DNA of 64,000 bases from an uncultured Lentisphaerota bacterium (GTDB lineage Bacteria > Verrucomicrobiota > Lentisphaeria > Victivallales > GWF2-50-93), in NCBI GenBank assembly GCA_903872565.1, contig CAIQLG010000287.1:4936-68935 (forward strand), given 5' to 3'. Under the pieces are notes generated by a model that saw only the letters and a list, made by a program, of their open reading frames with translations, had not been told where the DNA came from and ran no database searches. This document shows, piece by piece, positions 7,138 to 55,818 of the stretch. The position numbers and the translations under genes were made by a program. Every line of letters begins with the position of its first letter. The stretch's first letter is position 1.

Positions 7138-7457
7138 TTTTACCTCCGTGAAACTTGCCGGCAACAACGCTACCGCCATGGCGATGGCAACAAGATATAT
7201 AATGGTTGATTTATAAATATATAAATAATGATGTACTGATATATTTATAAAATAGTTTTGAATAAAACATTAAAAAAATTATTTTCAATGGGATAAATAC
7301 AAGAATCCATATAAATATAACTAATATTACATACTTACGATATCGTCCCACGGATTATTGGATAATCGGTGAATATTTACTTGCTTGATGATTTCACAAA
7401 TGGAATTATTTTATCCCTTGCAGGAGTCAAGTCAAAAATACCTCAGGAGACATAGCT

Positions 7458-8585
7458 ATGGAAAACTCGGTAAAACATGGAAGAGTATGGCTCGATATCA
7501 ATCTCGGCACCTTGCGGGAAAATTTCGGAAAAATCCGGAATGCCGTTCAGCCCTGCGGAGTTATAGCCGTACTCAAGGCGGACGCTTATGGGCTCGGATT
7601 CGAAAAAATTGCAGGAACACTCGCCAAGGCAGGAGCCGTCGGTTTCGGAGTCGCCGAACTGAGCGAGGCTCTGGCAATACGGAAATTCAAAAAGCCTGTC
7701 CAAATCCTTGGAGCAGTGCTTCCGGAGGAGATTCCTGACGCAGTCAATGCCGGAATAATCCTTCCCATCAACGACTATGAAATCGCAGAAATGATAAGCA
7801 GGGAGTCGGTGAAACAAAAAAAGAAGACCGAATGCCACTTTCTGATTGACACTGGAATGGGAAGGCTCGGTATGGTCTGGCAACAGGCTGAAAAAACAAT
7901 CCGGAAATGCGTAAAACTTCCAAACATTGACTTCACCGGAATCTACACTCATTTTCCAGTCGCATATCAGTCCGGAAGGGAATATACTGCCGGGCAGATC
8001 AGAAAATTCCTGGAGATTCTTGAAAGCCTCTCGAAATCGGGAATCAACTTCAGAAAAGTCCATTGCGCAAACAGCGACGCCGTCAACAACTTTCCTTTCA
8101 CATACAAATCTCCTTTCAATCTTGTGAGAACAGGCCTGGACATACACGGATCTTTTGACATCGAAGGCAAAAGAAGCCTCAACCTGAAATCAGTGCTTAC
8201 TCTCAAGACAAGGCTCGCCGCGGTCAGAACCCTCGAAGCGGGAGCAAGGATAGGATACGGCTGTACCTATACCCTTCCACGCAAAATGCTGGTAGGGACA
8301 ATTTCCGCCGGATACGCCGACGGCATCCCGTTCGCCCTCTCAAACAAGGGATATGTCATCATACGAGGAAAACCATGTGGGATCCTTGGAAGAGTATCAA
8401 TGGACTACACAACAGTCTCACTCGAACAGATCCCGGAGTCCCAGCGCGGAGACGAGGTCATATGCCTCGGTGGCGAAGGAATTCTCGAGATAACCGTCGA
8501 AAGCTGGGCACAGCTCAAGACAACGCACCCCCACGAGATAATCTGCTCCTTCGGAAAACGCGTCAAAAGATGCTACTCCGCCTGA
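7458..8585 (+). CDS. alr: Alanine racemase
   Basis: AVLKADAYGLG PLP-lysine motif, about 375 aa, AGGAG RBS. Confidence 0.9.
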   Translation: MENSVKHGRVWLDINLGTLRENFGKIRNAVQPCGVIAVLKADAYGLGFEKIAGTLAKAGAVGFGVAELSEALAIRKFKKPVQILGAVLPEEIPDAVNAGIILPINDYEIAEMISRESVKQKKKTECHFLIDTGMGRLGMVWQQAEKTIRKCVKLPNIDFTGIYTHFPVAYQSGREYTAGQIRKFLEILESLSKSGINFRKVHCANSDAVNNFPFTYKSPFNLVRTGLDIHGSFDIEGKRSLNLKSVLTLKTRLAAVRTLEAGARIGYGCTYTLPRKMLVGTISAGYADGIPFALSNKGYVIIRGKPCGILGRVSMDYTTVSLEQIPESQRGDEVICLGGEGILEITVESWAQLKTTHPHEIICSFGKRVKRCYSA

Positions 8586-8829: not shown

Positions 8830-9978
8830 CTAGCCCATAATTTTCTTGAACTGGGCGAAAAGGTAATACGGGTCGTGCGGGCCTGGAGAGGATTCAGGAT
8901 GATATTGTACAGCGAACATGGGCTCTCTTTTGTGCCTTAGTCCCTCGATGGTGCCATCGTTCAGATTTATATGCGTCTTATGCAGACAGGAGGGAAAATT
9001 CTTTTCGCTTATTGCAAAGTTGTGGTTCTGCGAAGTTATCTCCACCATTTTTGTCTTAAGGTTCTTTACCGGATGGTTGCATCCGTGATGCCCGAACTTC
9101 AACCTGAATCTTTCTCCACCGCAGGCAATCCCGAGAATCTGATGCCCGAGACATATCCCCATGATTGGAACTTTTCCTATCAGAGATTTTGCGGCGTCAA
9201 TCGCATATGATACGGCCGCAGGATCCGCAGGACCATTCGAGAAGAAAACACCATCGGGTTTCCTCTTCAGCACATTCTCAGCAGAAGTCTCCGCAGGAAC
9301 GACGGTCACATCCATCCCATTGAGCCGCAATGATCTGAGTATATTCCATTTTATCCCGAAATCATAGGCTACCACCTTGTATTTCAGTGGCGGAAGTTCT
9401 TCAGCTATTCCCCATGACTTTGTAAGCTTTCCGCTCTTGTCCCACTGATAGGGTTCCTTGCATGAGACTTTCGATGCATAGTCCTGATTGTCAAGCCCGA
9501 TCCATTTCTTCGCCTTTTCGACTCCTTTTTCCGGACTGAGACTTCCCGAACAGCACATATATCCCTTGAGTGTGCCCTTTGTCCTGAGCTTGACTGTCAG
9601 CGCTCTCGTGTCTATTCCTGCAATTCCCGGGATTTTGGCCTTTTTGAGAGCCGACACGAGCGACTGTTCTGAACGCCAGTTGCTTTCCTCGTTGAGATCA
9701 TGAATGATAAATCCATTCAGGAACAATCTGGCCGACTCCATGTCCTCGCTGTTGATTCCGGTGTTTCCGATTTCAGGATATGTCATCGTTACGAACTGTC
9801 CCGCATAGGATGGATCACTCAGTATTTCCTGGTACCCTGACATTCCGGTATTGAAGACGACTTCGCCTTCGCGGCTGACTTCTGCCCCGATGGAATATCC
9901 CTCAAATACTGTTCCATCCTCGAGTGCAAGAAATGCGTTCTTCTCTCTTTTCCGCTTCCAGTCGTAGTTATGTTTCAT
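8830..9978 (-). CDS. carA: Carbamoyl-phosphate synthase small (glutaminase) subunit
   Basis: FNTGMSGYQEILSDPSYAGQ N-domain and GICLGHQ class I amidotransferase catalytic Cys. Confidence 0.9.
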   Translation of the reverse strand: MKHNYDWKRKREKNAFLALEDGTVFEGYSIGAEVSREGEVVFNTGMSGYQEILSDPSYAGQFVTMTYPEIGNTGINSEDMESARLFLNGFIIHDLNEESNWRSEQSLVSALKKAKIPGIAGIDTRALTVKLRTKGTLKGYMCCSGSLSPEKGVEKAKKWIGLDNQDYASKVSCKEPYQWDKSGKLTKSWGIAEELPPLKYKVVAYDFGIKWNILRSLRLNGMDVTVVPAETSAENVLKRKPDGVFFSNGPADPAAVSYAIDAAKSLIGKVPIMGICLGHQILGIACGGERFRLKFGHHGCNHPVKNLKTKMVEITSQNHNFAISEKNFPSCLHKTHINLNDGTIEGLRHKREPMFAVQYHPESSPGPHDPYYLFAQFKKIMG

Positions 9979-10187: not shown

Positions 10188-10652
10188 TTACTTACCTTCC
10201 CAAGTATGCAAACAATCAAAACAATGCCATTTCTTTTCTTTCCATCGCCAAGGCATAAATGTAACGACAAGTTGCATTAATACATTTCTGTAACTAACAG
10301 AATCATATATTATACTGACAGACGGGCATTTAGGGAATTCATCTTTAGTTTTCACAATATCATCATACATTTTATCATCCTCAGCTGCCGAATACTTAAG
10401 ATTAAAAACACGTCCCCGGATTTCCATAGCAAGTTCAATATCATCAGGATGGATGTAGATAGCAGTCCCAGCACCTTGTCCAAAGGTTCCTCCATATGCC
10501 GCTATTAAAGGTGAGACATTCTTCAATTCTTCAGAATTCTCAGAAAAATTAAACCGTACTCCTCCTTCAATAAAATTGTCTAAAAGAAGTTTTGCATCAG
10601 AGTAACTGTAAGTTCCGAAATCACTGAATTTTTTATCTTTCTGTTTAGACAT
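10188..10652 (-). CDS. Hypothetical protein with a C-terminal Cys pair region (CP...CFDC)
   Basis: 154-aa ORF in the same orientation as its neighbours. No confident family. Confidence 0.45.
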   Translation of the reverse strand: MSKQKDKKFSDFGTYSYSDAKLLLDNFIEGGVRFNFSENSEELKNVSPLIAAYGGTFGQGAGTAIYIHPDDIELAMEIRGRVFNLKYSAAEDDKMYDDIVKTKDEFPKCPSVSIIYDSVSYRNVLMQLVVTFMPWRWKEKKWHCFDCLHTWEGK

Positions 10653-10676: not shown

Positions 10677-12065
10677 CTATTTCAGCAGGTACATGTTTGC
10701 GATTGAAATTCCACTAAGCATTGCGCCGGTTATCCCTAGGAAGCCCTGATCGGTTCCGCACAGATAAAGACCTTCCGTGTGTGTTCGGCCATTCTTGAAT
10801 TTCAACGGCGAACCATAAACCGCTCCATTGATATGCCCGGTAAACCTTCTAACAGTTTCCGGAGTAAAAATGTCTGAAAATACCAGTCTTTGCCTGAGAT
10901 CAGTTCTTCCGCAGAGTTCTCCGCATTTTTTCAGCAGGATTTCGGAAAGCTCCGCTTTTTTCCCGCGATATGTCTTTTTGTCGTATTTTCTCCAGGAATT
11001 GTGATTCGCGAGAACTGTGAGCCTAAGCATCCTCTCGTTTTTTCTCTCATCGTATCTGAAATTGAACGGACAGCAGAAAACACCGCTCCTGAGACTGTAA
11101 GCGGTGTCCGGCGCACAATAATCAAAATTGTCCGTTTCGTTGAAGAATTTTATCGAATAATCAATTCCTTCAAGATTTGTGCCGGGGTCGATGCAGAAAA
11201 TCGCCTCGATGAATGAAAGCTGGCCCTCAGGCAATTCCGCGAAATTCGCAGGTTTCTCATCGCAGATGTGCATCGTCTCCAGGCTTCCCGCGGATGAAAG
11301 CACATTTGAAGTCTCGAGCATTTCTCCGCCGGAAGTGATGGCAGCCACCGTTTTCCCGCCAGAATTCATAATTCTGCGAATTTCGCAGTTGTACCTAAGT
11401 TCGCCGCCGGATTCCTTGAAACGGTCCTCGAGAAGAGTTATCAGCTGTCTTATCCCCTTCTCTGGACGACAGAAACCTTCCCTGAAAATGCTCTTGTACA
11501 TGATTGCGAACTGCGCAAAATCCATGTCCTTCTCGACTGCACTTCCATAATACATCAGCGGGCAGAAAAGCATTTCGACGAGAAGTTCGTTTTTGATGAA
11601 TCCGGACACGGTTTTTCTGGCGGATACATAAGGGGCGTTGACATCCAGTTCGTTGTAGGACATTATGTGTGAGTCGAGCCTGAGAAAGTTGTCAATCTCG
11701 GAGGGGAACTTGTCCGAGATCGAAGTTTTCAGCATATCGAAGTCGTTTGAGAAGGAGAGGGAAGCGGAGGAAAATTGTATGATGGAATAGTTCTGTTCTC
11801 TCAGGCAGAGTTCATCGTAGGGAATTCTCAGCTGTCTGAGAAGTTTCATCAGCGGCGAGTTCTTTGCACCGCCACGCGGGATAAAGTTGGTCATGGCATG
11901 AAGGCCGGTGTCAATTTCGATTCCATTCCTGTTGTAATACGAGTTGAGACCGCCTCCTCTGCCATGCTTTTCAGCAATGCAGACTTTCTTCCCGAAATGT
12001 GCGAGCCGTATCCCGGCGGCAAGCCCCGACATTCCGGCTCCGACTATGATGCAGTCATATTTCAT
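10677..12065 (-). CDS. FAD/NAD(P)-dependent oxidoreductase, phytoene-desaturase-like
   Basis: N-terminal YDCIIVGAGMSGLAAGIRLA dinucleotide-binding fold, 462 aa. Confidence 0.8.
   Translation of the reverse strand: MKYDCIIVGAGMSGLAAGIRLAHFGKKVCIAEKHGRGGGLNSYYNRNGIEIDTGLHAMTNFIPRGGAKNSPLMKLLRQLRIPYDELCLREQNYSIIQFSSASLSFSNDFDMLKTSISDKFPSEIDNFLRLDSHIMSYNELDVNAPYVSARKTVSGFIKNELLVEMLFCPLMYYGSAVEKDMDFAQFAIMYKSIFREGFCRPEKGIRQLITLLEDRFKESGGELRYNCEIRRIMNSGGKTVAAITSGGEMLETSNVLSSAGSLETMHICDEKPANFAELPEGQLSFIEAIFCIDPGTNLEGIDYSIKFFNETDNFDYCAPDTAYSLRSGVFCCPFNFRYDERKNERMLRLTVLANHNSWRKYDKKTYRGKKAELSEILLKKCGELCGRTDLRQRLVFSDIFTPETVRRFTGHINGAVYGSPLKFKNGRTHTEGLYLCGTDQGFLGITGAMLSGISIANMYLLK
11237..11251. repeat. 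15-bp palindrome family CTGCGAAWTTCGCAG, one mismatch (CCGCGAAATTCGCAG)
   Basis: Read directly. Lies inside the oxidoreductase ORF. Confidence 0.8.
11374..11388. repeat. 15-bp palindrome CTGCGAATTTCGCAG, perfect
   Basis: Read directly. Lies inside the oxidoreductase ORF, 137 bp from the previous copy. Confidence 0.9.
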
Positions 12066-12700: not shown

Positions 12701-12956
12701 TTTTGTCTGACACGAATTCCCACGAATTTTAATCGCTGAATATCCCCGGGCAAAGAATTTCCGTTTCTCCAAAATATTCATTGCCACTGTAAAAGATGAC
12801 GGCCAGGAATGACCGTCCTACTAAATTGCATAAAATCTTATTCCTCTCTAAGAGTAAATTCGTAAATCGATACATAACCACCAATTCATTAAAATTTAGT
12901 TGTAACGACCTTAATTTAGTCTATATTATGGTCATGATATAAGGGGAAATAATATT

Positions 12957-13250
12957 ATGAAACTGCACGATAAGGTAAAATCAATCAGCTATGTGAAGTC
13001 TCACGCCTCTGAAATACTGAACAAGATAAGCGATACCCATTCCACCTATGTGATAACCCAGAATGGTGAAGCAAAGGCGGTGATACAGGACATAGAAGAA
13101 TATGACAAGCTTCAGGAATCGCTTGCCATGCTTAAACTGATAGCCCAGGGTGCCAATGATATTGAACATGGCAGAATCAGACCGCTCAAAGAGTCATTCT
13201 CAAGTATTCGCAGGAAAATATCCGACAGGAAGTCCGCATGGAAAAAATGA
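12957..13250 (+). CDS. Phd/YefM-family antitoxin
   Basis: SYVKSHASEILNKISDTHSTYVITQNGEAKAVIQDIEEYDKL is a typical Phd/YefM fold sequence. ATGA overlap with the next ORF. Confidence 0.8.
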   Translation: MKLHDKVKSISYVKSHASEILNKISDTHSTYVITQNGEAKAVIQDIEEYDKLQESLAMLKLIAQGANDIEHGRIRPLKESFSSIRRKISDRKSAWKK

Positions 13251-46407: not shown

Positions 46408-49365
46408 TTATCTCAGCAGTCTTTCGACAATCTGAATCATCTTTTCCTTCCCTACCAGAGGGAAGAGAAACTTGTAAAGCTCTGCCTTGAGTTGACGCAG
46501 TTCTTCCGGATTGTCCTTGGAATTCGGAAATCTCTCAACCATACTTTTTACTATGGCTGCATTTTTGGCGGGTTCTTCCATTTTTTCTGATTTCAGCTTC
46601 CAGAAAATTCCAAAAGTATCAGAGTCGAGACCAGACAACTCCCGCTCCTTCCGCGCGGCCAGCATTTCCTTCACAATATCCTCTATTCTCTTCAATGCGC
46701 TCTCCGTGGAAATCTGCCTGTCGTCGAATGCCTCTATTATAGCCTCCGCACGGTCGCCGATTTCGTGGAGATACGGCGCATTGTCTCCTTCATCGGTCAC
46801 TTTTTTCCTTATGCCGATCACAAGGTTGATTATCTTTCCTTTGTCCGATTTTCCGGAAATTCTTATCGCATCAAGAGTCTTATCGTCAATTACTACTGCA
46901 GGAAGAGCATTTTCCAGACCGAACACCGAGATATTTTCGCGGATAAGATGTTCCGTCTTTCCAGCTACATCGCCATACAGGACGGTTTTTCTGCTGAACG
47001 CATTTCCTATTATCTGGAACATTGCGGAAAGTTTTGCGAAATCATCCATATGATCCCTTAGATCGGGAGATGGAGACAATATGTCGTATATCGTTTCCAA
47101 TTGTTTGTAAAGCCTGAAGAAATCCTCTCTCTCGCTCTTGTCAGAGAACAATTCGACAATTTTTTCCACTGTCTTGTCATCCAGACTACCATCACAGAGT
47201 ACCAGATATTTTTTCGCATCCTTTGCCATCAGGTCGTGAAATCTTGCAAGAAGGATATCTATCCCCTCGATCGCTCCGCCAACCACATCAGAGTCGAATG
47301 CCAGTGCTTTCTCAAGCTTCTCGAAGATTCCTACAAAATCCACTACGAGGCCGCATGGCTTCCGTTTTTTCTCATTTATTTCATAAGGTCTGTTAACCCT
47401 TGCAATCGCCTGAAGCAGAACGTGATCGCGCATCGGCTTATCAAGATACATGCAGTAGAGAATCGGAGCGTCGAAACCAGTCAGAAGCTTGTCAGTCACA
47501 ATGAATATCTTTGGCAAAGTGTCCGGTTTCAAAAACTGCTTGCGGACCATCTTTTCTGCTTCCGCGCCAACCTGGTGTTTATAAACAAAGGGAAATCTCT
47601 CACCGTCGTGCTGGGCCGAACTGTATATCGGCATAGAATATTCCGGAGGCAAAAGCTTGTCCAGTTCCTCCTTGTAGAGGGCACAGGCTTCGCGATCCAC
47701 ACCGACTAGAAAGGCCTTGTATCCCATCGGCTCGACATTTTCCCGGTAGTGTTTTGCAACAAACTTTGCGACCTTCGCAATTCGGTCCTTAGATTTAAGA
47801 AAATTCTTCAATTTCAGTGCATGGTCCAGAATTTTGTTTAACACATCAATATCGCAAATGCCTTCTGCCTCCGCAAGCGACAGGAATTCCTTCTCGAGTT
47901 GTTCCCGCGGCACTCTGATCTCGTTCGGTGCGAGAGCATACTTCAGAGGTAGAGTAGTTCCGTCGTCTATTGATTCGCTTATTGAATATTTGTCGAGATA
48001 ACCCTTGTCGTCCTCTCTTCCAAAAATCTTGAATGTCCCCTTCCCATATGCGGTCTTGTCTATCGGCGTTCCGGTGAAGCCTATCATCGTGGCACTTGGA
48101 AGAGCGGCAACCAGATAGTTACCGAGATCGCCCCCTATACTCCTGTGCGCCTCGTCTATAAGAACGAAGATATTGTCCCGCTTGTTAACATCTTTTGAAA
48201 TTCCATCGAACTTGTGTATCATCGAGACAACAAGGCCTCTGAAATCCGATTCTAGAAGGCTTCTGAGTTTTTTCTTGCTGTTTGCTGACTCGATCTTAAT
48301 GTCGTGCGCCTGCATCTCGCCAAGAAGCCTTCCGACCCATCCGGAAAGCTGTCCCTCGAGTTCATTTCTGTCAATCATAAGTATCACTGTTGGTTTGCCG
48401 AACAGATCCTTCTCACGGAGAATTAGGCGTGCCGCAGTAATCATAGTGAAAGTTTTACCCGACCCCTGAGTGTGCCATATCAGACCTGTCTTCCTTGCCT
48501 CGTCGGAACAACGTTCGAGAATCTTGTCCACAGCTCTCGTCTGATGCTGTCGCAGGACAGTCTTACGTAGTTCATCATCCTTGTAATAAAACAAAATCCA
48601 TTCCCGCAGCATCATCAGGAAACGTCCACGGTCAAAGAAACTTTTCACCTTCGACTCGAAAGAATCGAAGTTCTGGGAGATGCCGTTCTCGCCTCTCCCC
48701 GTCCCCCTCTGGAGAGGGGCTCCAACCCGTTCATCATTTGCCGATTTCCAACTGAAAACATTCTTGCAGTCGAGGTTCCAGGTCACTCCATACATGAAAT
48801 CAATCAGATGTGTTATGTTGAAAACCTGTGCGCTTGTAACCATTTCCGGTGTTTCCCTGTGATATTCGCGAATCTGGACTAGCGCCTTCTCGATTCCGTC
48901 CGGTTTTTTTGCATTTTTTGACTCTACTATGGCAACTGGAATTCCATTGATCAGAAAAATAATATCAGAGCGGTTGGTCTCTCGTCCATTGGTGAACTGC
49001 CACTCTTCGGTGACTTGAAAAATATTGTTTTTGATTTTTTCATAGTCAATGAGAGCCACATTGCGTTCACGTTTTTCCTTGTGGTCATAAATGCTTTTTT
49101 CGCCGCGAAGCCAGGAAAGGATCGAGGCATTGCCCTCGATGGTATTCCGCTCTGACTCTATCCTTCGTATCACATCATTTACATTTTCGCCAGTGATCAG
49201 GCCGGGGTTGAATTTCTTAAGCTTGTCAGCAAGAATGTCCGAAAAAAGCATCCCGGACTCTCCACCGCGGAGCGACAACGCTTCCGAGGTGGAAATATAT
49301 TCCCACCCCGCATCAACCGCATATTTTATCAGCGGTTTCTGAACTGTGTTTTTTTCCGTAAACAT
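46408..49365 (-). CDS. hsdR: Type I restriction enzyme R subunit
   Basis: WHTQGSGKTFTMI (motif I), LIDEAHRS (DEAH), C-terminal helicase and assembly regions. I prefer the ATG at 49365 with a GAGGA RBS; the track start is TTG at 49386. Confidence 0.9.
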   Translation of the reverse strand: MFTEKNTVQKPLIKYAVDAGWEYISTSEALSLRGGESGMLFSDILADKLKKFNPGLITGENVNDVIRRIESERNTIEGNASILSWLRGEKSIYDHKEKRERNVALIDYEKIKNNIFQVTEEWQFTNGRETNRSDIIFLINGIPVAIVESKNAKKPDGIEKALVQIREYHRETPEMVTSAQVFNITHLIDFMYGVTWNLDCKNVFSWKSANDERVGAPLQRGTGRGENGISQNFDSFESKVKSFFDRGRFLMMLREWILFYYKDDELRKTVLRQHQTRAVDKILERCSDEARKTGLIWHTQGSGKTFTMITAARLILREKDLFGKPTVILMIDRNELEGQLSGWVGRLLGEMQAHDIKIESANSKKKLRSLLESDFRGLVVSMIHKFDGISKDVNKRDNIFVLIDEAHRSIGGDLGNYLVAALPSATMIGFTGTPIDKTAYGKGTFKIFGREDDKGYLDKYSISESIDDGTTLPLKYALAPNEIRVPREQLEKEFLSLAEAEGICDIDVLNKILDHALKLKNFLKSKDRIAKVAKFVAKHYRENVEPMGYKAFLVGVDREACALYKEELDKLLPPEYSMPIYSSAQHDGERFPFVYKHQVGAEAEKMVRKQFLKPDTLPKIFIVTDKLLTGFDAPILYCMYLDKPMRDHVLLQAIARVNRPYEINEKKRKPCGLVVDFVGIFEKLEKALAFDSDVVGGAIEGIDILLARFHDLMAKDAKKYLVLCDGSLDDKTVEKIVELFSDKSEREDFFRLYKQLETIYDILSPSPDLRDHMDDFAKLSAMFQIIGNAFSRKTVLYGDVAGKTEHLIRENISVFGLENALPAVVIDDKTLDAIRISGKSDKGKIINLVIGIRKKVTDEGDNAPYLHEIGDRAEAIIEAFDDRQISTESALKRIEDIVKEMLAARKERELSGLDSDTFGIFWKLKSEKMEEPAKNAAIVKSMVERFPNSKDNPEELRQLKAELYKFLFPLVGKEKMIQIVERLLR

Positions 49366-49392
49366 TTTTTCCTCGCAAAGACGCAAAGCTTT

Positions 49393-49452
49393 TTATATTT
49401 TGACACTTTTAACATCAATATCCAATTCCCCCACCCGGATTTTACCTCTCAT
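49393..49452 (-). pseudogene. hsdS: Relic of a second hsdS 3-prime end (19 codons plus stop)
   Basis: Translates as MRGKIRVGELDIDVKSVKI-stop, against LMTGELRVGELDIDVESVKI-stop at the end of the intact hsdS. Over the core of about 50 nt the DNA differs from 51151-51200 at only one position. Confidence 0.65.
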
Positions 49453-49493
49453 AGGACATTGCCGTATCGCCGAGGGTTTCAGTGTTGCTTCTC

Positions 49494-51044
49494 TCATATC
49501 AACGGCTTTTCCATGTCGGTCTTCCATTCCTGTAGTTCTTTCAGAGATAGAACCACATCGTAATCTTCGCAATCTTCGGCGTGATTCAATGCATCCTGTA
49601 AAAAAACCATGGCGCAGGACAGGTCGAGAGGCATGCCATATTTTTCAGCGTCACAGCCATGCATTTCAGCAATAACAACATAGTTCTGCGCATCTTTTGG
49701 ATTCTCGGTGATCGCCTCTTCTAAAAAGTCCAACGCCTGTTTGTTACGCCCTAAAACGGCCATGGCGCGAGCCAGATCGGCTTTAAGGTTTGACCTCATC
49801 CGCTTGTCCATTTCTGGAAAGCGGTCTAGGAGTTCCTTGAAATACGTCACTGAGAATTCAGCTGTCCTCATATTTCTTCCCGATAAATCGACCAGCAGCC
49901 TTTCAAAATCCTGCATCCAGTTGACAAGAAAATCATGTCCTTCAAAAACTCCGGCATCTTCGGGATTCTTTAAAGTCTGCGGCAGCATGTCCCGCAATTC
50001 ATTCCAACATCTCTTCCAGCACTCAAAAGTCTGCAATGACATATGCTTATCTATGTAAATATACCCAGCCCTCATCCAATCATTGGCCGAGATGTTTTTA
50101 TCCCGGACAGGCTTGTCCGACACTGAAACTTGGGGGGGAGCTTCCGAAGGGCCATTCAGACAGCATTTCTTGTATTTTTTTCCGCTACCACAGGGGCAGG
50201 GATCGTTTCTGCCTATCTTTGCACGCGGTGCAGTTGAGAGCCGTTGCTGCTCCTTGAGGACATCTAGCAAACCCAAGCATTCTTCTTCATTTTCAAATTC
50301 CGGATAGGGTTTCTTTCCCCATTGACAAACGAAGAAGTTCATTGACTTTTCGATGCTTTCAAAGACACGGTGACTTTTTCTCGTCTGTTCCAGCACCTCA
50401 TCAACAGATTTTTCGAAGTCACTTAGAATATAGTCCAATCTTTCGAACCCCGGATCGGCCAATCCCCTCTCGTAACATTTCTTAATCAGGGGCAATGCAA
50501 CATCAGCGTGAATGCTGGAAGCAACCACGATCGCCTTATCCCATATAAACGAGGCTCTTCTCTCCAATCCTTTTTCCAAGAGAAAAACACAGTATTCCGC
50601 AAGTGAATCCCGGGAGAGTTCACCATCCAGCATCATATGCAGCAAGCTGTCCATTGCCGAGGCCCGGGCATATTCATCGGGTACGGAATCTTCAATCAGT
50701 GCCTTTGTCTCATCCACCCGGCCCGCGCAGGTTCTCGCAAGCATGTCCGACATGGTCTCAGTCAGAATATCTCCAAGAACATGGCGTTGAACGACTTTGG
50801 GCAGACGACAAAGTTTTAAATAAAGCGGGAAAGCGTCCCGAGATCGCATCTCGGCACAAAGATGGATGGCGTAAAGAAACAGAGCATCACGATCCTCCGT
50901 CGTGGGAGATTGCAGTTTCAAGTCAATATCCTTCAACAGAAGCGGATCCGCCTCATTCCAGTTTGCACGTATGTAATCCAGCGCTTCTCGCGGCACCTTC
51001 GACGTGAACGGCCTCAGCGCATCAATCGCTTCCGTAATATTCAT
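49494..51044 (-). CDS. SEC-C metal-binding-motif protein (DUF1186-like N-terminal region, TPR-like C-terminal region)
   Basis: GRNDPCPCGSGKKYKKCC. AAGGAG RBS. 516 aa. Confidence 0.75.
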   Translation of the reverse strand: MNITEAIDALRPFTSKVPREALDYIRANWNEADPLLLKDIDLKLQSPTTEDRDALFLYAIHLCAEMRSRDAFPLYLKLCRLPKVVQRHVLGDILTETMSDMLARTCAGRVDETKALIEDSVPDEYARASAMDSLLHMMLDGELSRDSLAEYCVFLLEKGLERRASFIWDKAIVVASSIHADVALPLIKKCYERGLADPGFERLDYILSDFEKSVDEVLEQTRKSHRVFESIEKSMNFFVCQWGKKPYPEFENEEECLGLLDVLKEQQRLSTAPRAKIGRNDPCPCGSGKKYKKCCLNGPSEAPPQVSVSDKPVRDKNISANDWMRAGYIYIDKHMSLQTFECWKRCWNELRDMLPQTLKNPEDAGVFEGHDFLVNWMQDFERLLVDLSGRNMRTAEFSVTYFKELLDRFPEMDKRMRSNLKADLARAMAVLGRNKQALDFLEEAITENPKDAQNYVVIAEMHGCDAEKYGMPLDLSCAMVFLQDALNHAEDCEDYDVVLSLKELQEWKTDMEKPLI

Positions 51045-51079
51045 AGCTCAAGCTCCTTAACTTATCCTCTTTTTTTTAT

Positions 51080-51146
51080 CTTTGCGATCTTGGCGGCTTG
51101 GCGAGAGGTAAATAATTTTTTCTCGCAAAGGCGCAGAGACGCAAAG
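51080..51146. repeat. CTTTGCG-heptad palindromic spacer element (E4)
   Basis: CTTTGCGATCTTGGCGGCTTGGCGAGAGG ... CTCGCAAAGGCGCAGAGACGCAAAG. The reverse complement aligns with the element at 53929-53970. Confidence 0.65.
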
Positions 51147-51150
51147 TTTT

Positions 51151-52344
51151 TTATATTTTGACACTTTCAACATCAATATCCAATTCCCCCACCCGGAGTT
51201 CTCCTGTCATCAGCTTGTTCAATGTCGTATTGAACAAATCCTGCAACGCGGATTTTTTGGAATCATTAAACTCAAGCTTATTGGAAGTTATATCCATCAT
51301 TTTCACAATTTTATCCTGCTCCATTCGTTCCGGGCACGGAATAGACAATGATTTTAGTTGTGTGGCTGGAAGATGTGCTATTGTAGAGCTTGCACCAGCA
51401 TTACCATAAAGTTTCTGCATTTCAATCGAAAACATTAGCCAATATACTAAGAACTCATTTGAAATAATTTTTGTCTTTGGGCGAAGACGATGGAGCGCTT
51501 TTTGGTAATAGCAGTCTCGTATTTGCCCTTGCCAAATTGCTGCACGGCCAGGCTCTCCTCCCTCACAAATTAATAGATCACCGGGAACAAGGCTAAACTT
51601 TTCCATTTCTTTTGGTGTAAAATCCATTTTTAATATGTCTTCGACATCAATCTTACCCCATTGAACATTTTTATTGCGGAGATAAAGCTTTGGGTTATTA
51701 CCGATATGAGCCTTCTGTGATAACATCTTTCCAAGTTGCACATTAAATACCTCACCTATTTTCACCACTTCCCAGCTTTCCGGGATTTCGCCGATAGGCG
51801 TATATTTTGTTTTTTCCCCATGGAGTCCACGGGAAAAAATAAAATTCATTGTGGACTTTTTCAGATCTCGGAGGGACTGGATAATCTTTTCCTGGATTAA
51901 AATTGCATTCTGCAATTTTAATAGTACCGCCGCAATCTTCTCCTGCTCGGGAAAAGGTGGGAGTGAGATATCCTTTTCTTTCAATAGTTGATAATGGCGA
52001 GAATATCCTTTACTCGGTATATCCAAGAGTAAAAGGTAATAATAAAAATATCGTGGATTAATGTCCGATCTTGGCTTAATTAATTTGGTACCATCCGCAC
52101 CAAGAGCAAATGGAAAGTCAACATATTTGAATATCCTCGTGTGATCACCAAAAATTATATAAGGTAAATTTTCAGAGATCACTGTTGATACATCGTCTGT
52201 CCAGCCTGTTATATCACTTTGTCCCTGATCAACAATTGGATATTTCCCAGCAGTAAGATAGGTAGCGGCCTTAACCTGTCTGCTCCGATCTATACGAACT
52301 GGGTCAATACATTCAGAAAAATTATTAATCGTCCACTTATTCAT
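51151..52344 (-). CDS. hsdS: Type I restriction-modification specificity subunit
   Basis: Two target-recognition halves separated by the conserved LPPFPEQEKIAAVL...L spacer helix, with a matching C-terminal helix. 397 aa. Confidence 0.85.
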   Translation of the reverse strand: MNKWTINNFSECIDPVRIDRSRQVKAATYLTAGKYPIVDQGQSDITGWTDDVSTVISENLPYIIFGDHTRIFKYVDFPFALGADGTKLIKPRSDINPRYFYYYLLLLDIPSKGYSRHYQLLKEKDISLPPFPEQEKIAAVLLKLQNAILIQEKIIQSLRDLKKSTMNFIFSRGLHGEKTKYTPIGEIPESWEVVKIGEVFNVQLGKMLSQKAHIGNNPKLYLRNKNVQWGKIDVEDILKMDFTPKEMEKFSLVPGDLLICEGGEPGRAAIWQGQIRDCYYQKALHRLRPKTKIISNEFLVYWLMFSIEMQKLYGNAGASSTIAHLPATQLKSLSIPCPERMEQDKIVKMMDITSNKLEFNDSKKSALQDLFNTTLNKLMTGELRVGELDIDVESVKI

Positions 52345-52376
52345 TATTTAACTCTTTCTAACCCAAAAAAATTTTA

Positions 52377-52444
52377 CTTTGCGTTTCATTGCGCCCTTTG
52401 CGGTGAAGATTTTTTTACCGCGGAGAACGCCAAGGAACGCAGAG
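52377..52444. repeat. CTTTGCG-heptad palindromic spacer element (E1), direct repeat of 52850-52917
   Basis: CTTTGCGTTTCATTGCGCCCTTTGCGGTGAAGATTTTTTTACCGCGGAGAACGCCAAGGAACGCAGAG. Internal GCGGT...ACCGC hairpin. Abuts the GxxExxY stop codon. Confidence 0.75.
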
Positions 52445-52822
52445 TTACAAACCGTTCACCATTCTTTTGACCCCATCCTTTAGTAGCATGACATTGAAAT
52501 TCATCAGCAATCCGAGTTTAAGTCCGCTCAGTTTCAGGTATGACAGAAGCTGTGCTTCGTGGATTGGTGCGATTTTGTCTACAGCCTTGAGTTCGATTAC
52601 GACTTTGTTTTCAACAAGTAGGTCTATTCGGTATCCGAGGTCGATTTTGATATCGTCGTAGATGACCGGGAGAGCTTTTTGTTTTTCCACGAAGAGTTTT
52701 TTCTTTTTCAACTCATATTCGAGACATCCCTCATATGCGGATTCAAGAAGTCCCGGACCGAGAGCCTTGTGAACTTTCAATGACGCATCAATAATTTCTT
52801 TGCTGATTTCATTTTCCGTCAT
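52445..52822 (-). CDS. GxxExxY-family protein (PD-(D/E)XK-like small protein)
   Basis: GPGLLESAYEGCLEYEL contains G-x-x-E-x-x-Y. 125 aa. LVENKVVIELKAV is the typical core. Confidence 0.8.
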   Translation of the reverse strand: MTENEISKEIIDASLKVHKALGPGLLESAYEGCLEYELKKKKLFVEKQKALPVIYDDIKIDLGYRIDLLVENKVVIELKAVDKIAPIHEAQLLSYLKLSGLKLGLLMNFNVMLLKDGVKRMVNGL

Positions 52823-52849
52823 AATTTTTCTTCCTTATTTTATGTTTTT

Positions 52850-52917
52850 CTTTGCGTTTCATTGCGCCCTTTGCGGTGAAGATTTTTTTACCGCAGAGAA
52901 CGCTAAGATACGCAATG
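52850..52917. repeat. CTTTGCG-heptad palindromic spacer element (E2)
   Basis: Nearly identical to 52377-52444 over about 60 nt, in the same orientation. Lies 28 nt upstream of the GxxExxY start. Confidence 0.75.
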
Positions 52918-53103
52918 TTTATTTAATTTTGCTGGAAACAGCCCATTTACAGGCTGTAATTTCGGATATTTCTCCCTTGTGGAAATATATCTGTAAGTTC
53001 TTCGCTCATAATATATTGTAATTTTAGGTACAGTGTCCCCAAAATTTGCCGATATAAAGGATAATCTCCCTTCGATAGCTCTGTTACTTTCTTCTTCATT
53101 TAT

Positions 53104-53757
53104 CTACCATTCTTTCGGTTTATGGACAAATTTTCCGCTTGGCAATAGAACCTTGTCAGGGAACTGGTGTTTCGCATATGATTCGGCGGAAAAAGCAAAA
53201 GAATCAGGACTGATTTTCGCAAGCTCCTTGTTTTTACGGCCAAAGGGAAATGCAAATAACAATTTCTTCTCTGGATTCATTCGCCCAAATGTTGAAATGA
53301 CTGGTCGCAGATCTGTATCGCCGGTCACAATAACCGCAGTGTCAAACGATCCTTTGTTAGCTTCTTCCAGAACAGCACAAGCCAATGCAACATCGGTTTC
53401 CTTTTCCTCATGAGCAATGATCTTCTTTCCAGTCTCGGCATCGTATACGTCTTTTTTCTTAAAATGGCTTTCGTTGACTTTTACGCCAGTAGCTGTCAAT
53501 GCGCGGGTGTAAGCCTTATGTCTCGAAATTTTGTTGGGATTCTTATATGCGAGATGATAAGCGTAAGCCGTGAAATATGAAACCTGGCTGAGTACGGCCT
53601 CGTGGCCAATCAGGTGCAAATGTTTTTTGCATAGATTATGAATATCCAACCATTTGAGCTGTTTTCCGGGCAGGATTTTTTGAGCGTCACAAATAGAGTG
53701 GTACAAGTTGAACCCATCAACAAAGAAACAAGTGCGGATTGGGGTGGATGTAATCAT
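53104..53757 (-). CDS. NYN-domain (PIN-like, LabA-type) predicted ribonuclease
   Basis: CFFVDGFNLYHS, EEKETDVALA, AVIVTGDTDLRPVI acidic residues in the canonical NYN order. Confidence 0.8.
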   Translation of the reverse strand: MITSTPIRTCFFVDGFNLYHSICDAQKILPGKQLKWLDIHNLCKKHLHLIGHEAVLSQVSYFTAYAYHLAYKNPNKISRHKAYTRALTATGVKVNESHFKKKDVYDAETGKKIIAHEEKETDVALACAVLEEANKGSFDTAVIVTGDTDLRPVISTFGRMNPEKKLLFAFPFGRKNKELAKISPDSFAFSAESYAKHQFPDKVLLPSGKFVHKPKEW

Positions 53758-53928
53758 AAGACAATCTCCCCGGCAACATACGGCAGGGGAAAAAAACCCA
53801 CGGATCGTAACCCGTGGGGGGCCACGCGACCTCGGAACCAGGTCCGAGGATCATCGTGGGGATGATTCTGCATAAATATAGAATGAGTTTCTACTGTTTC
53901 AAGAAAATATTTCATGAAAAAATTATTC

Positions 53929-53970
53929 CTTTGCGTTCTTTGCGGCTTTGCAAGAAAAATAATTTTCTCC
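53929..53970. repeat. CTTTGCG-heptad spacer element (E3)
   Basis: CTTTGCGTTCTTTGCGGCTTTGCAAGAAAAATAATTTTCTCC, between hsdM and the NYN ORF. Confidence 0.65.
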
Positions 53971-54003
53971 CTGTGCATTTCGTGTCTTTTTTGATTAGAG
54001 CCA

Positions 54004-55818
54004 TTAAAACCCCATCTGTTTGAAAATCTTCTTCATATCCTTGTCAATTACAGTGGCTTTGCATTCCAGTTCCTCGAGTTCATTCAATATTTCCGGTATT
54101 GGACGATATTCGACTTTCTCACTTGTGTCCACATAACGGGATGGAGAGAGGTTATAGTCGTTTTCAGTGACTTCCTTATTGCCTATTACCTTGACAAATC
54201 TCTCTATGTCCTGGCCTTTTATGAACGCCTGGGCTATTTTCTTGATGTTCTCCTCGGGAATGTAATTTTTCGGACTTCCCTTCTTGAACTCTGTGCTTGC
54301 ATTAACCAGTACAATTTTGCCTTTTCTGGCCGGAACCTTATTTTTATTCAGTAGAATGATGATTCCCGCCGCTGTAGTATTGTAGAAGAGATTGTCCGGG
54401 AGAAGAATGACTCCCTCGACAAGATCATTTTCCACAAACCATTTTCTTATGGTGTTCTCCTTGTCCTCGTTACGGCTTCCACTGCCACGCGTCACCGCCC
54501 CGGTATCGAGAACCACGGCGGCACGTCCATTAGGCTTAAGCGAGGCGATGGTATGCTGAAGCCAGGCCCAGTCGGCCTTGCCGGAAGTGATTCCTCCGTG
54601 TGACTCGAACCTGTCGAAATGGTCATTTTCATAGACTGACGTTTCGAACGGCTGGTTCCACATCGGATTTGCCACGACAATATCGAACTGCCTCAGGCGC
54701 GATTCAGAATCCCTGAATTTCGGGTTCGTCATGGAATTTCCACGAACTATCTCCCCTTCCATATCATGGATAACCATATTCATCCGTGCGATGGCATAGC
54801 TTGAACCCGTAAGTTCCTGTCCATAGAGTTTTAGAGGCCTGTTCACTTTGATTTCACGTTCCTGGAGTGCAAGTTCGCATTTGATCAGGAGACCGGCTGA
54901 GCCACAGGCGTAGTCATAGACTTCTTCTCCCTGTGAAGGTCGTGCCATAAAGGCCATGAGCCAACCGACTTCTGTGGGCGTGAAAAACTCCCCGGCGCTC
55001 TGCCCCTGTCCTTCGGCGAATTTTCTGAGAAGATATTCGTAGCAGCGTCCGAGAAAATCAGGTTCCACATTGTAAAGTCCCAGTCGGTATTTCGGATCAG
55101 ACAACTTTTCGATGATTCCTGAAAGAGCCGCATCGCTGATTTCCCTCTCTCCGTTCCTGACCTCGTTGAAATCAATGATGTCCAAGACCCCGCTGAGATC
55201 TTTGCGCGTGTCTCCGGCGTTCATCTTCACTACCGCCCTCATCGCAAGAGTAAGATGTTCTCCGAGCGTTTTCGGTTTTTTGTCTTTTGTCCAGTCAAAC
55301 TTATCTCTACCGCTCACCACCGCCCATCGTGCCTCGGGAGGGATATAGAAACGAACCAGGCTTTTGTCGGCCTCGATTATTGAAATAGCCGTATCCCTGT
55401 CTCCATAGGTTTCGGACAAGCGTTCTATTTCATCGTCGAAGACATCGGAAAGTCTCTTGAGAAATATTATCGGCAATATATAGTCCTTGAACTTGGGGGC
55501 GTCCTTCTCTCCGCGGATAGAACAGGCGGCGCTCCACAATATCTGTTCCATGGATTTTGTGCTGAGAATATCACTTCTTTGTCCCTTGACCTTTTTCTTC
55601 GGAAGTTCCTCTTCAAAGAGTTCAGCCTGGTCGGACTCTGTCTCTTTGATCAGTTCCATGATAGCACGTTTCGCCTTTCCCTGAGGAAAACTTTTCCCAT
55701 TTTCCCAGCGATTCAAAGTGGAAAAGGCAACTCCAAGCTTGGCGGCAAGTTCTTCCTGTGTCAGATTCAGAGTTTCTCTTAGTCTGATTACTATTGATGA
55801 TATGTCCCTATCTTCCAT
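54004..55818 (-). CDS. hsdM: Type I restriction-modification methyltransferase subunit with a fused N-terminal XRE-type HTH
   Basis: LNLTQEELAAKLGVAFSTLNRWENGKSFP (HTH). DYACGSAGLL (motif I). VANPMWN (NPPW-type motif IV). Confidence 0.9.
   Translation of the reverse strand: MEDRDISSIVIRLRETLNLTQEELAAKLGVAFSTLNRWENGKSFPQGKAKRAIMELIKETESDQAELFEEELPKKKVKGQRSDILSTKSMEQILWSAACSIRGEKDAPKFKDYILPIIFLKRLSDVFDDEIERLSETYGDRDTAISIIEADKSLVRFYIPPEARWAVVSGRDKFDWTKDKKPKTLGEHLTLAMRAVVKMNAGDTRKDLSGVLDIIDFNEVRNGEREISDAALSGIIEKLSDPKYRLGLYNVEPDFLGRCYEYLLRKFAEGQGQSAGEFFTPTEVGWLMAFMARPSQGEEVYDYACGSAGLLIKCELALQEREIKVNRPLKLYGQELTGSSYAIARMNMVIHDMEGEIVRGNSMTNPKFRDSESRLRQFDIVVANPMWNQPFETSVYENDHFDRFESHGGITSGKADWAWLQHTIASLKPNGRAAVVLDTGAVTRGSGSRNEDKENTIRKWFVENDLVEGVILLPDNLFYNTTAAGIIILLNKNKVPARKGKIVLVNASTEFKKGSPKNYIPEENIKKIAQAFIKGQDIERFVKVIGNKEVTENDYNLSPSRYVDTSEKVEYRPIPEILNELEELECKATVIDKDMKKIFKQMGF

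Follow-up and report, generated by a model that had tools for sequence, protein, structure and literature searches.

How did a set of closely related hairpins come to lie between the genes of a single restriction operon, and are they connected with the genes that they separate? The question is raised by a 64,000-nucleotide stretch of contig CAIQLG010000287.1 (assembly GCA_903872565.1) from an uncultured Lentisphaerota bacterium; we refer to this stretch, at its full length, as the window. Positions 49,366 to 53,970 make up the variable central part of a type I restriction-modification (R-M) operon on the minus strand. Based on Pfam and NCBIfam assignments, the operon is transcribed in the order hsdM, an NYN-domain gene, a 50-codon open reading frame (ORF), a gene of the GxxExxY family, hsdS, a DUF1186/SEC-C/TPR gene, and hsdR. 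A preliminary description of this DNA reported five related elements built of CTTTGCG-like heptads (E1 to E5) in the spacers of the operon, and suggested that they either deliver small cassettes into operons or act as RNA processing or terminator modules. Judging from their sequences, these elements are copies of a widespread and apparently undescribed repeat family, the gene-carrying form of which encodes a predicted GxxExxY nuclease. We lean, with little better than even confidence, toward a DNA-level reading of this family, in which recombination between hairpins brought the GxxExxY gene to a resident hairpin or removed it from one, and the nuclease acts on the heptads.

Heptad elements in the hsd operon

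The 64-kb window contains 22 copies of the heptad CTTTGCG, compared with 10.9 ± 3.1 expected. Defining an array as at least two CYNNGCG or CGCNNRG units at a spacing of 8-11 nt, we found 7 arrays where 0.85 ± 0.89 were expected (200 simulations, maximum of 3), and 6 of the 7 fell within a 4.7-kb interval (49300-54000). Heptad arrays are non-random and local to the hsd locus, and all five of the previously reported elements were located at the positions given for them.

E1 (52377-52444) and E2 (52850-52917) are complete hairpins on either side of the GxxExxY gene (52445-52822, minus strand; 378 bp, 125 aa; PF13366 and TIGR04256). The preliminary description had presented them as near-identical direct repeats around this ORF, and we measured 91% identity over 75 nt (52372-52446 versus 52845-52919); it had also placed E1 against the stop codon of the gene, and indeed the last unit of E1, CGCAGAG (52438-52444), touches the stop codon at 52445-52447. 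The gene-proximal half of E2 (52850-52877; ACCGCAAAGGGCGCAATGAAACGCAAAG on the sense strand) is the 5′ arm of a GxxExxY cassette and the gene-proximal half of E1 (52417-52444; CTCTGCG..GCGGT on the sense strand) is its 3′ arm. An identical 45-mer is common to both hairpins (52377-52421 and 52850-52894) and takes in the loop, an entire arm, and 5 nt of its partner arm; the remaining 23 nt contain all 6 differences between the two (hypergeometric P ~9 × 10−4). Because of this mosaic structure, with 45 identical nucleotides and 6 differences in 23, E1 and E2 are not the product of a simple recent tandem duplication.

E4 (51080-51146) is a complete, gene-less hairpin of three plus three heptads with the inner ends GCGAG and CTCGC, and it folds at −27.6 kcal/mol on the sense strand and −33.7 kcal/mol on the antisense strand. 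The other two elements are half elements. E3 (53929-53951) has three units on the plus strand (CTTTGCG, CTTTGCG, and CTTTGCA, separated by TT and by G) followed by an A/T run, and next to it, at 53970-53986, are two units of another heptad type (CCTGTGC ATTTCGTGTC; CACGAAA/CACAGGG-type). E5 (49374-49388) has two heptads that read CTTTGCG-T-CTTTGCG on the sense (minus) strand, and it adjoins the hsdR ribosome-binding site and ATG (49365). We folded the elements, as had been proposed for them, on both strands and found that E1, E2, and E4 form stable, long imperfect hairpins (−28 to −38 kcal/mol, z −4.8 to −7.9) that none of 200 shuffled sequences could match. The palindromic character ascribed to the elements is therefore true of these three, but E3 (fold z −2.4) and E5 (z −1.6) are both single arms. 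In sum, the operon holds one gene-bearing copy of the family together with a complete hairpin that lacks a gene (E4) and with E3 and E5 as single arms.

GxxExxY genes and their arms

The protein encoded between E2 and E1 is a clear member of the GxxExxY family TIGR04256/PF13366, with scores of 153.3 bits against TIGR04256 (cut-off 35) and 149.2 bits against PF13366, PDDEXK_3 (cut-off 22). The PD-(D/E)XK core residues D67, E77, and K79 are present and are invariant or nearly so in 30 relatives. AlphaFold2 modeled the protein at a mean predicted local distance difference test score (pLDDT) of 94.7 with an alpha-beta-beta-beta-alpha-beta core; the best fold matches in the PDB, Cas4 SSO0001 and nucleases of the lambda-exonuclease type, are weak (E ~1 × 10−3), and none of the GxxExxY relatives has a solved structure. 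Given the confident fold, we regard the protein as a predicted PD-(D/E)XK nuclease.

A homologue search returned at least 8000 scored matches, all below E = 1 × 10−10. Among the matches listed, one has 76% identity and is followed by a cloud at about 70% that includes Nitrospinota, Desulfovibrionales, and Planctomycetota records. The function of PF13366 has been given as “Unknown,” with “multiple transfers” (PMC3424549). Our literature search found no paper tying GxxExxY to flanking repeats, and no relative of the window's GxxExxY clade turned up among the 2.9 million viral contigs of IMG/VR, whether the query was the single protein or a 30-sequence profile.

We sought distinct GxxExxY genes in 1.8 Mb of fetched loci. 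All 7 that were inspected have a purine-type array upstream (ACCGC..CGCxxAG, with two to three units) and an inverted pyrimidine-type array downstream (CTxxGCG..GCGGT), the latter beginning 0-5 nt past the GxxExxY stop codon. The three loci with the nearest relatives of the window's protein, L005 (76%), L006 (74%), and L008 (71%), all place the gene between such arrays. In the window, the gene together with the adjoining halves of E2 and E1 constitutes this canonical unit. The complete form of the family would thus be a unit of approximately 0.45-0.5 kb, in which an arm with ACCGC and three CGCxxAG units, a 125-aa GxxExxY gene, and an arm with three CTxxGCG units and GCGGT follow one another.

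To assess the spread of the arms, we performed an exact pattern scan of Joint Genome Institute (JGI) metagenomes with the 26-nt arm ACCGCAAWGGRCGCAAWGRRACGCAA, which gives a sample selected through one arm. This arm was found in 71 metagenome contigs (74 instances), with approximately 0 expected by chance. A GxxExxY gene was present within 900 nt of the arm in 5 of the 74 instances, and none was present within this distance in the other 69. Removal of near-identical copies left 67 distinct arms; 24 of these form hairpins of two arms and a short loop, 6-7 have the opposite topology, and 2 belong to arm-gene-arm units (391 and 434 nt). The GxxExxY genes that were inspected always carry arms, yet most arms are gene-less, and in other organisms the same arm family sits among ordinary housekeeping genes.

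Several of these loci deserve separate mention. In L135, L097, and L103, all from one metagenome sample, CTxxGCG/CGCxxAG arrays are present in nearly every spacer over 6-10 kb, among genes for saccharopine dehydrogenase, PfkB kinase, and URO-D and genes that are serA-like and carB-like; evidently, the family is a dense generic intergenic repeat in some genomes. L128 (2041-2700) and L160 (127-1180) each have an arm-GxxExxY-arm unit directly upstream of a similar gene, the N-terminus of which we take, judged by sequence only, to resemble 3-isopropylmalate dehydrogenase (leuB). The proteins upstream of the two units end alike, so the sites appear to be orthologous, and one of them has an extra upstream arm. 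In L008 (1290-1754 and 3001-3378), a Desulfovibrionales metagenome-assembled genome (MAG), the 71%-identical GxxExxY gene has CGCAAAG-type arms and is found in a defence neighborhood, with WYL and Cas3 genes beside it; at a distance of 1.2 kb is a gene of the four-helix-bundle family 23S_rRNA_IVP.

An empty site in a related operon

We scanned species-representative genomes for HsdM and obtained 80 related operons from many phyla (58-83% identity), a set from which the window's own genome is absent. The closest of the 80, L010, comes from a Lentisphaera MAG and has 83% identity to the window in HsdM, 75% in NYN, and 73% in HsdR; HsdS is 42% identical, with the usual conserved center and C-terminus. 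Among the related hsd operons fetched, the window and L010 are the only two with hairpins inside the operon. L010 has a single hairpin (10554-10619) directly before hsdS that is 80-81% identical to both E1 and E2, a second hairpin directly past the hsdS stop codon, and stacked purine-type arrays after hsdM at a place homologous to E3. This 80-81% identity exceeds the 70-75% nucleotide identity of the coding DNA of hsdM, NYN, and hsdR, and the other spacers show no detectable similarity. The hairpins before and after hsdS (51151-52344, minus strand; 397 aa) have thus been kept position for position in L010, which represents another Lentisphaerota lineage.

The site before hsdS in L010 has no GxxExxY gene. 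With its single hairpin, this site is therefore the counterpart of the hairpin-gene-hairpin arrangement of the window, an empty site beside an occupied one; a comparison with relatives had been suggested in the preliminary description, and for the GxxExxY gene it yielded just such a site. When we searched with the NYN protein for a closer empty site, we found no relative between 78% and 100% identity, and the 78% match, L161, has the gene sizes and gene order of L010 and was taken as belonging to the L010 lineage. We also considered whether the outer arm of E2 is the “resident” arm, being closer to the L010 hairpin than the outer arm of E1, and dropped the idea at 22/28 versus 21/28 matching positions.

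Different heptad families were seen to abut one another, both in L010, which has GCAGAGG/GCAGACG units at 9160-9230, and in metagenome contigs, where CGCGGAT, TTTCTGA, and TGGGAT arrays adjoin CGCAAAG arms (L090, L092, L095, L096, and L101). Arrays of different heptad types seem to accumulate at the same spots.

Copy number and population variation

We estimated copy number in the organism from word depth and from look-alike contigs (80% likeness) in four lake metagenomes, using Logan contigs. The 45-mer shared by E1 and E2 had a depth of 38.6 in a lake metagenome, compared with 18.3-18.9 for its flanks; at twice the flank depth, it is present in 2 copies in the organism. No other E1/E2-like or E4-like contigs were found at the organism's depth in the four runs, and the few extra look-alike contigs (2-6x depth) come from other organisms. 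In the window organism, the elements appear to be confined to the hsd operon, and the lack of further copies at the organism's depth indicates that they travel with the operon and do not populate the genome.

We found the exact GxxExxY protein indexed in 43 blocks, and the 19 contigs that we read all carry it. Four population variants are approximately 99.9% identical, and the sole difference within an element is found in L001, where one 8-nt unit of E4 is absent (CTCTGCGC; window 51124-51146), which means that heptad number varies within the population. Variants in samples ERZ1426855 and ERZ1426730 have a 371-aa HsdS (versus 397 aa), a 518-aa DUF1186 protein (versus 516 aa), and small extra ORFs between the two, indicating that hsdS and its 3′ junction vary within the species. 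A candidate circular or tandem form (a joint going back 473, in run X6) was rejected as an assembly path, since the locus had approximately 4x coverage there and gaps at both competing graph edges, and deeper runs show none.

Conservation of the heptads

The elements could be conserved as RNA helices or as DNA sequence, and the hairpins from the metagenomes bear on this choice. In 32 such hairpins, which were selected through one arm and offer modest power, variable positions matched their own partner at a rate of 0.621, versus 0.627 ± 0.019 for shuffled partners. This absence of covariation between the arms argues against a selected RNA helix. In addition, the two arms of the hairpins have systematically different spacers between their units. 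Since there is no covariation, the spacers differ, and the number of units varies, it is the iterated heptad core that is conserved and not the helix, and this pattern fits recognition by a protein better than it fits a selected RNA hairpin. Of 7 hairpins, 6 fold better on the antisense strand; an asymmetry of this kind in the metagenome sample would be an artefact of the fixed arm. Rfam 15 returned two chance-level matches only (27 versus 86 bits and 19 versus 49.5 bits), and a terminator scan identified only plus-strand (antisense) sub-hairpins of E1 and E2, with no sense-strand site at any element. Among RNA sequencing runs, none was found to contain this DNA. A secondary effect of the −28 kcal/mol stems on mRNA stability is likely.

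Other passengers and the duplicated end of hsdS

Pfam identified the remaining genes of the operon, all on the minus strand, as hsdM with an N-terminal helix-turn-helix (HTH) domain (54004-55818), the NYN-domain gene (53104-53757), the DUF1186 + SEC-C + TPR passenger (49494-51044; 516 aa), and hsdR (46408-49365; 985 aa), which is the operon's last gene. Extra ORFs between hsdM and hsdR were present in 48 of 54 complete related hsd operons, most commonly YhcG/DUF1016 (13), DUF3800 (10), Fic (8), RhuM (7), AlbA_2 (7), and NYN (6). An NYN gene follows hsdM in L022 and L026, and a DUF1186 gene lies between hsdS and hsdR in L017, L023, and L027, in all cases without heptad arrays. The suggestion that the repeats are a cassette-delivery signal thus finds support for the GxxExxY gene, with its arms in 7 of 7 cases and its empty site in L010, but not for NYN and DUF1186; as relatives carry these same two genes without the repeats, an observation that the preliminary description had itself named as refuting, a general signal of the kind proposed there can be set aside. 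Both genes are passengers of the usual type I R-M kind, independent of the repeats.

The NYN gene is part of a module (53104-53902, minus strand) that comprises a promoter-like site (53902-53875), a structured RNA of approximately 80 nt that ends in an intrinsic terminator (53818-53797), and the gene itself. The module is bounded by E3 and E2 in the window; L022 and L026 carry it with no arrays, and its own promoter-like site, structured RNA, and terminator mark it as an independent module. The promoter-like site, the ~80-nt RNA, and the terminator are kept in four operons: the window (53902-53790), L010 (9352-9460), L022 (~7420-7530), and L026 (~11870-11985). Compensatory changes are found in all three helices of this RNA. 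Helix 1 reads CCACG/CGUGG, CUACG/CGUAG, or CCAUG/CAUGG; helix 2 reads CCUCGGA/UCCGAGG, CCUUGGA/UCCAAGG, or CCCCGGA/UCCGGGG; and the terminator stem reads CCCACGG or CCCGCGG. The RNA has no match in Rfam. The 74-aa ORF called upstream of NYN (53978-53754) is probably no protein gene, and the layout is reminiscent of a type III toxin-antitoxin locus or of an attenuator.

The DUF1186 gene is bracketed by a direct repeat, D1 (79 nt, 91% identical), that we recognized by direct-repeat comparison. The upstream copy (51132-51210, minus strand) consists of the true hsdS 3′ end, its stop codon, and an arm, and the downstream copy (49374-49452, minus strand) consists of a remnant hsdS 3′ end (the last ~20 codons and a stop) and an arm. 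E5 is part of D1, as is the arm of E4 that adjoins hsdS (51108-51146). If a one-unit 8-nt indel is allowed (D7), the repeat grows to 95 nt and reaches 49358 and 51108. The hsdS ends of the two copies translate as MRGKIRVGELDIDVKSVKI and MTGELRVGELDIDVESVKI, each followed by a stop, and the bracket repeat comprises the terminal 60 nt of hsdS with its stop codon, a single arm, and the start of hsdR (ribosome-binding site and first codons).

A similar bracket is present in L010, where a 226-nt direct repeat (89%; 11829-12053 and 12947-13171) surrounds a DUF3800 gene and is built from the 3′ end of hsdS, one complete hairpin, and the start of hsdR with its ribosome-binding site and ATG. Relative to the start of hsdR, the right ends of the L010 bracket and of D1 are within 1-2 nt of each other, and the matching brackets suggest one old duplication, the content of which was later exchanged. 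The duplicated hsdS end, arm, and hsdR start would then have provided portable homology for passenger swapping, as with DUF3800 in the L010 bracket. Heptad-free operons have brackets as well: the hsdS 3′ end is duplicated in L074 (13015-13108 and 14372-14465) and the hsdR 5′ end is duplicated in L023 (5803-5874 and 7839-7911) and L041 (14559-14650 and 15741-15832), in each case as direct repeats of 73-94 nt with 75-86% identity around passengers between hsdS and hsdR. The bracket is thus a recurrent insertion scar of this hsd family and not a trait of the heptad element. Perfect 55-nt repeats in L027 and L031 were discarded as scaffolding artefacts beside N runs.

Alternative explanations

The hairpins may instead punctuate the operon at the RNA level, serving as 3′-exonuclease barriers, RNase III/E processing sites, or weak attenuators that set the amounts of HsdM/S, passenger, and HsdR; repetitive extragenic palindromic (REP) hairpins act in this way in malE-malF. 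Such a role would agree with the stability of the hairpins on the sense strand (−28 kcal/mol, z −4.8 to −6.8), with their placement 0-6 nt past stop codons and before ribosome-binding sites, with the T-run after E1, and with the 80% conservation of the hairpins between two operons in which the other spacers have diverged beyond recognition. We nevertheless consider it unlikely, as the arms do not covary, the better-folding antisense strand contains G-U pairs that are C-A mismatches on the sense strand, no Rfam family matches, and no element scored as a sense-strand terminator. Moreover, of the five elements no more than three are hairpins, the same arms are found in either topology and beside unrelated genes, and no such hairpins are found in the hsdM-hsdR spacers of the other 78 related operons (L011-L089). 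The conserved heptad cores, the spacers that vary without covariation, and the variable number of units would also be expected of binding-site arrays for a host regulator or nucleoid protein, to which the GxxExxY gene is linked only incidentally, and comparable paired arrays in Geobacter have been called “global regulator binding sites” (PMC2700814). This explanation strikes us as very improbable: a 26-nt arm found in 71 contigs with unrelated flanks is unlike a lineage-specific regulator site, GxxExxY relatives of approximately 70% identity are named from at least three phyla, arms accompany 7 of 7 GxxExxY genes, and the absence of copies outside one operon in the organism is unlike a global regulon.

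A more ambitious alternative treats the locus as an integron-like cassette array that lacks a recombinase, in which the NYN module, GxxExxY, hsdS, and DUF1186/DUF3800 are all arm-cargo-arm units. The palindromes would then be abutted outer ends and attC-like recombination sites, as at the junction of a circularized element, and the GxxExxY nuclease would cut or resolve these junctions, shuffling specificity subunits and defence passengers between operons. The geometry is that of the canonical unit throughout, since the sense strand reads arm (E3)-NYN-arm, arm-GxxExxY-arm, arm-hsdS-arm, arm-DUF1186-arm (E5); the two terminal elements are single arms, as expected; 6 of 6 complete hairpins are joined outer end to outer end, an arrangement that is rare elsewhere (~10%); and different genes occupy the position behind hsdS in the window and in L010. 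Even hsdS is flanked as the passengers are, by a CGCxxAG arm upstream (E1) and a CTxxGCG arm downstream (E4). However, hsdS is a core gene and no passenger, NYN and DUF1186 occupy the same slots without arms in relatives, and in L010 the element before hsdR is a complete hairpin and not a single arm. With 60-120 nt of hsdS coding sequence in them, the DUF1186 and DUF3800 brackets point to events that are driven by homology and are not site-specific. There are no attC core sites, the genes within 10 kb on either side have no recombinase or integrase Pfam match, and solitary hairpins of the same topology exist without partner arms. We hold this alternative to be quite unlikely.

Proposed gain or loss at a resident hairpin

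The reading that we favor, gain or loss of GxxExxY at a resident hairpin, rests on the two operon lineages that carry elements. Under this reading, the hairpins would have been resident in a mobile hsd operon lineage since before the split between the window and L010, and the GxxExxY gene would have been gained in the window (or lost in L010) at a resident hairpin of the same family, in an event that duplicated (or collapsed) the hairpin. Recombination between hairpin copies would be the simplest such event, whether as Campbell-type integration or excision of a “gene + hairpin” or as entry of an arm-gene-arm unit into a resident hairpin's loop, the loop being duplicated in the process. The mosaicism of E1 and E2 could also stem from one of them having later converted part of the other. 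What the nuclease recognizes may be the iterated heptads and not a perfect helix, and the enzyme would supply the break, or the junction cleavage, that starts such gain and loss events.

A number of observations weigh against this reading. No biochemical activity is known for any GxxExxY/PF13366 member. The hairpins of L010 have been kept without a cognate GxxExxY gene in the operon, and the GxxExxY gene nearby is only 40% identical. The 80% conservation of the hairpins could equally reflect a function in the operon, at the RNA or the DNA level. All 6 complete hairpins in both operons are of the rarer topology (~10% of metagenome arms), with the GCGGT/ACCGC ends facing inward, an orientation that gives each module, and hsdS among them, a purine arm on its upstream side and a pyrimidine arm on its downstream side; a picture of decayed cassettes leaves this inward-facing topology unexplained. 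The same arrangement was found at 10 of the 10 places listed for the exact GxxExxY protein, and no presence/absence polymorphism is seen within the species. Finally, there is no multi-copy population in this organism, and REPIN-like proliferation is not seen.

Comparison with known systems

Accessory genes within type I R-M operons are well known, for example prrC between the hsd genes in E. coli, as well as RhuM, Fic, and YhcG/DUF1016. The NYN and DUF1186/SEC-C genes, which lie between hsd genes, conform to this pattern; the pattern explains the passengers but not the repeats, and no heptad arrays are found beside those genes in relatives. The REPINs and their associated tyrosine transposases (RAYTs) resemble the present family in several ways, as both consist of short intergenic palindromes that are mostly gene-less, have a single-gene “master” copy between inverted repeats, sit in operon spacers, and tolerate transcription. 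On the other hand, GxxExxY is a PD-(D/E)XK protein and not an HUH/Y1 transposase, and each arm is an array of 2-4 iterated heptads in place of a single REP carrying a GTAG head. REPINs reach tens to hundreds of copies per genome, whereas here the elements are found in one locus only, and the heptad/GxxExxY family crosses phyla at approximately 70% protein identity.

Integron cassettes with their attC sites are similar in that imperfect palindromes of 60-70 nt stand between genes of the same orientation, and in that a gene and a palindrome form a unit, the presence or absence of which leaves one palindrome (window versus L010). Unlike an integron, the window locus has no integrase and no attI; E1, E2, and E4 end in CTTTGCG ... 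CGCAGAG or CGCAAAG, without GTTRRRY or RYYYAAC core sites; the heptad palindrome is highly conserved in sequence across organisms, whereas attC conserves structure and not sequence; and neither hsdS nor the NYN module, which has its own promoter-like site, is a promoterless mobile cassette. The intervening sequences of 23S rRNA (S23p, PF05635) likewise place a small gene of a large, horizontally mixed family between pairing inverted repeats, and PF05635 members also occur as hsd passengers (2 of 120 passenger ORFs) and near the GxxExxY gene in L008. The window element differs from these in lying outside rRNA, in its protein family, and in having no need for RNase III excision.

The nearest published observation that we found is that of paired tandem hepta- and octanucleotide repeats in Geobacter metallireducens, read there as “global regulator binding sites” (PMC2700814). 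These too are tandem arrays, of 4-5 units of 7-8 nt, mostly as inverted pairs with variable spacing and in many intergenic copies, but the unit sequences are different and no link to a nuclease gene was reported (PMC2700814).

Significance

The pair formed by L010 and the window defines the junctions of a GxxExxY gain or loss event, and the window locus separates the GxxExxY gene, which the repeats explain, from NYN, DUF1186, and the duplication of the hsdS end. It further provides a case of repeats that accompany a mobile restriction operon instead of populating a genome. If the nuclease acts on its own arms, the family would be a minimal selfish or recombinogenic element of approximately 0.45 kb, similar in concept to REPIN-RAYT and based on a different enzyme. 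Should the locus prove to be a cassette system, this would provide a function for one of the largest uncharacterized bacterial protein families and a new way of building defence islands.

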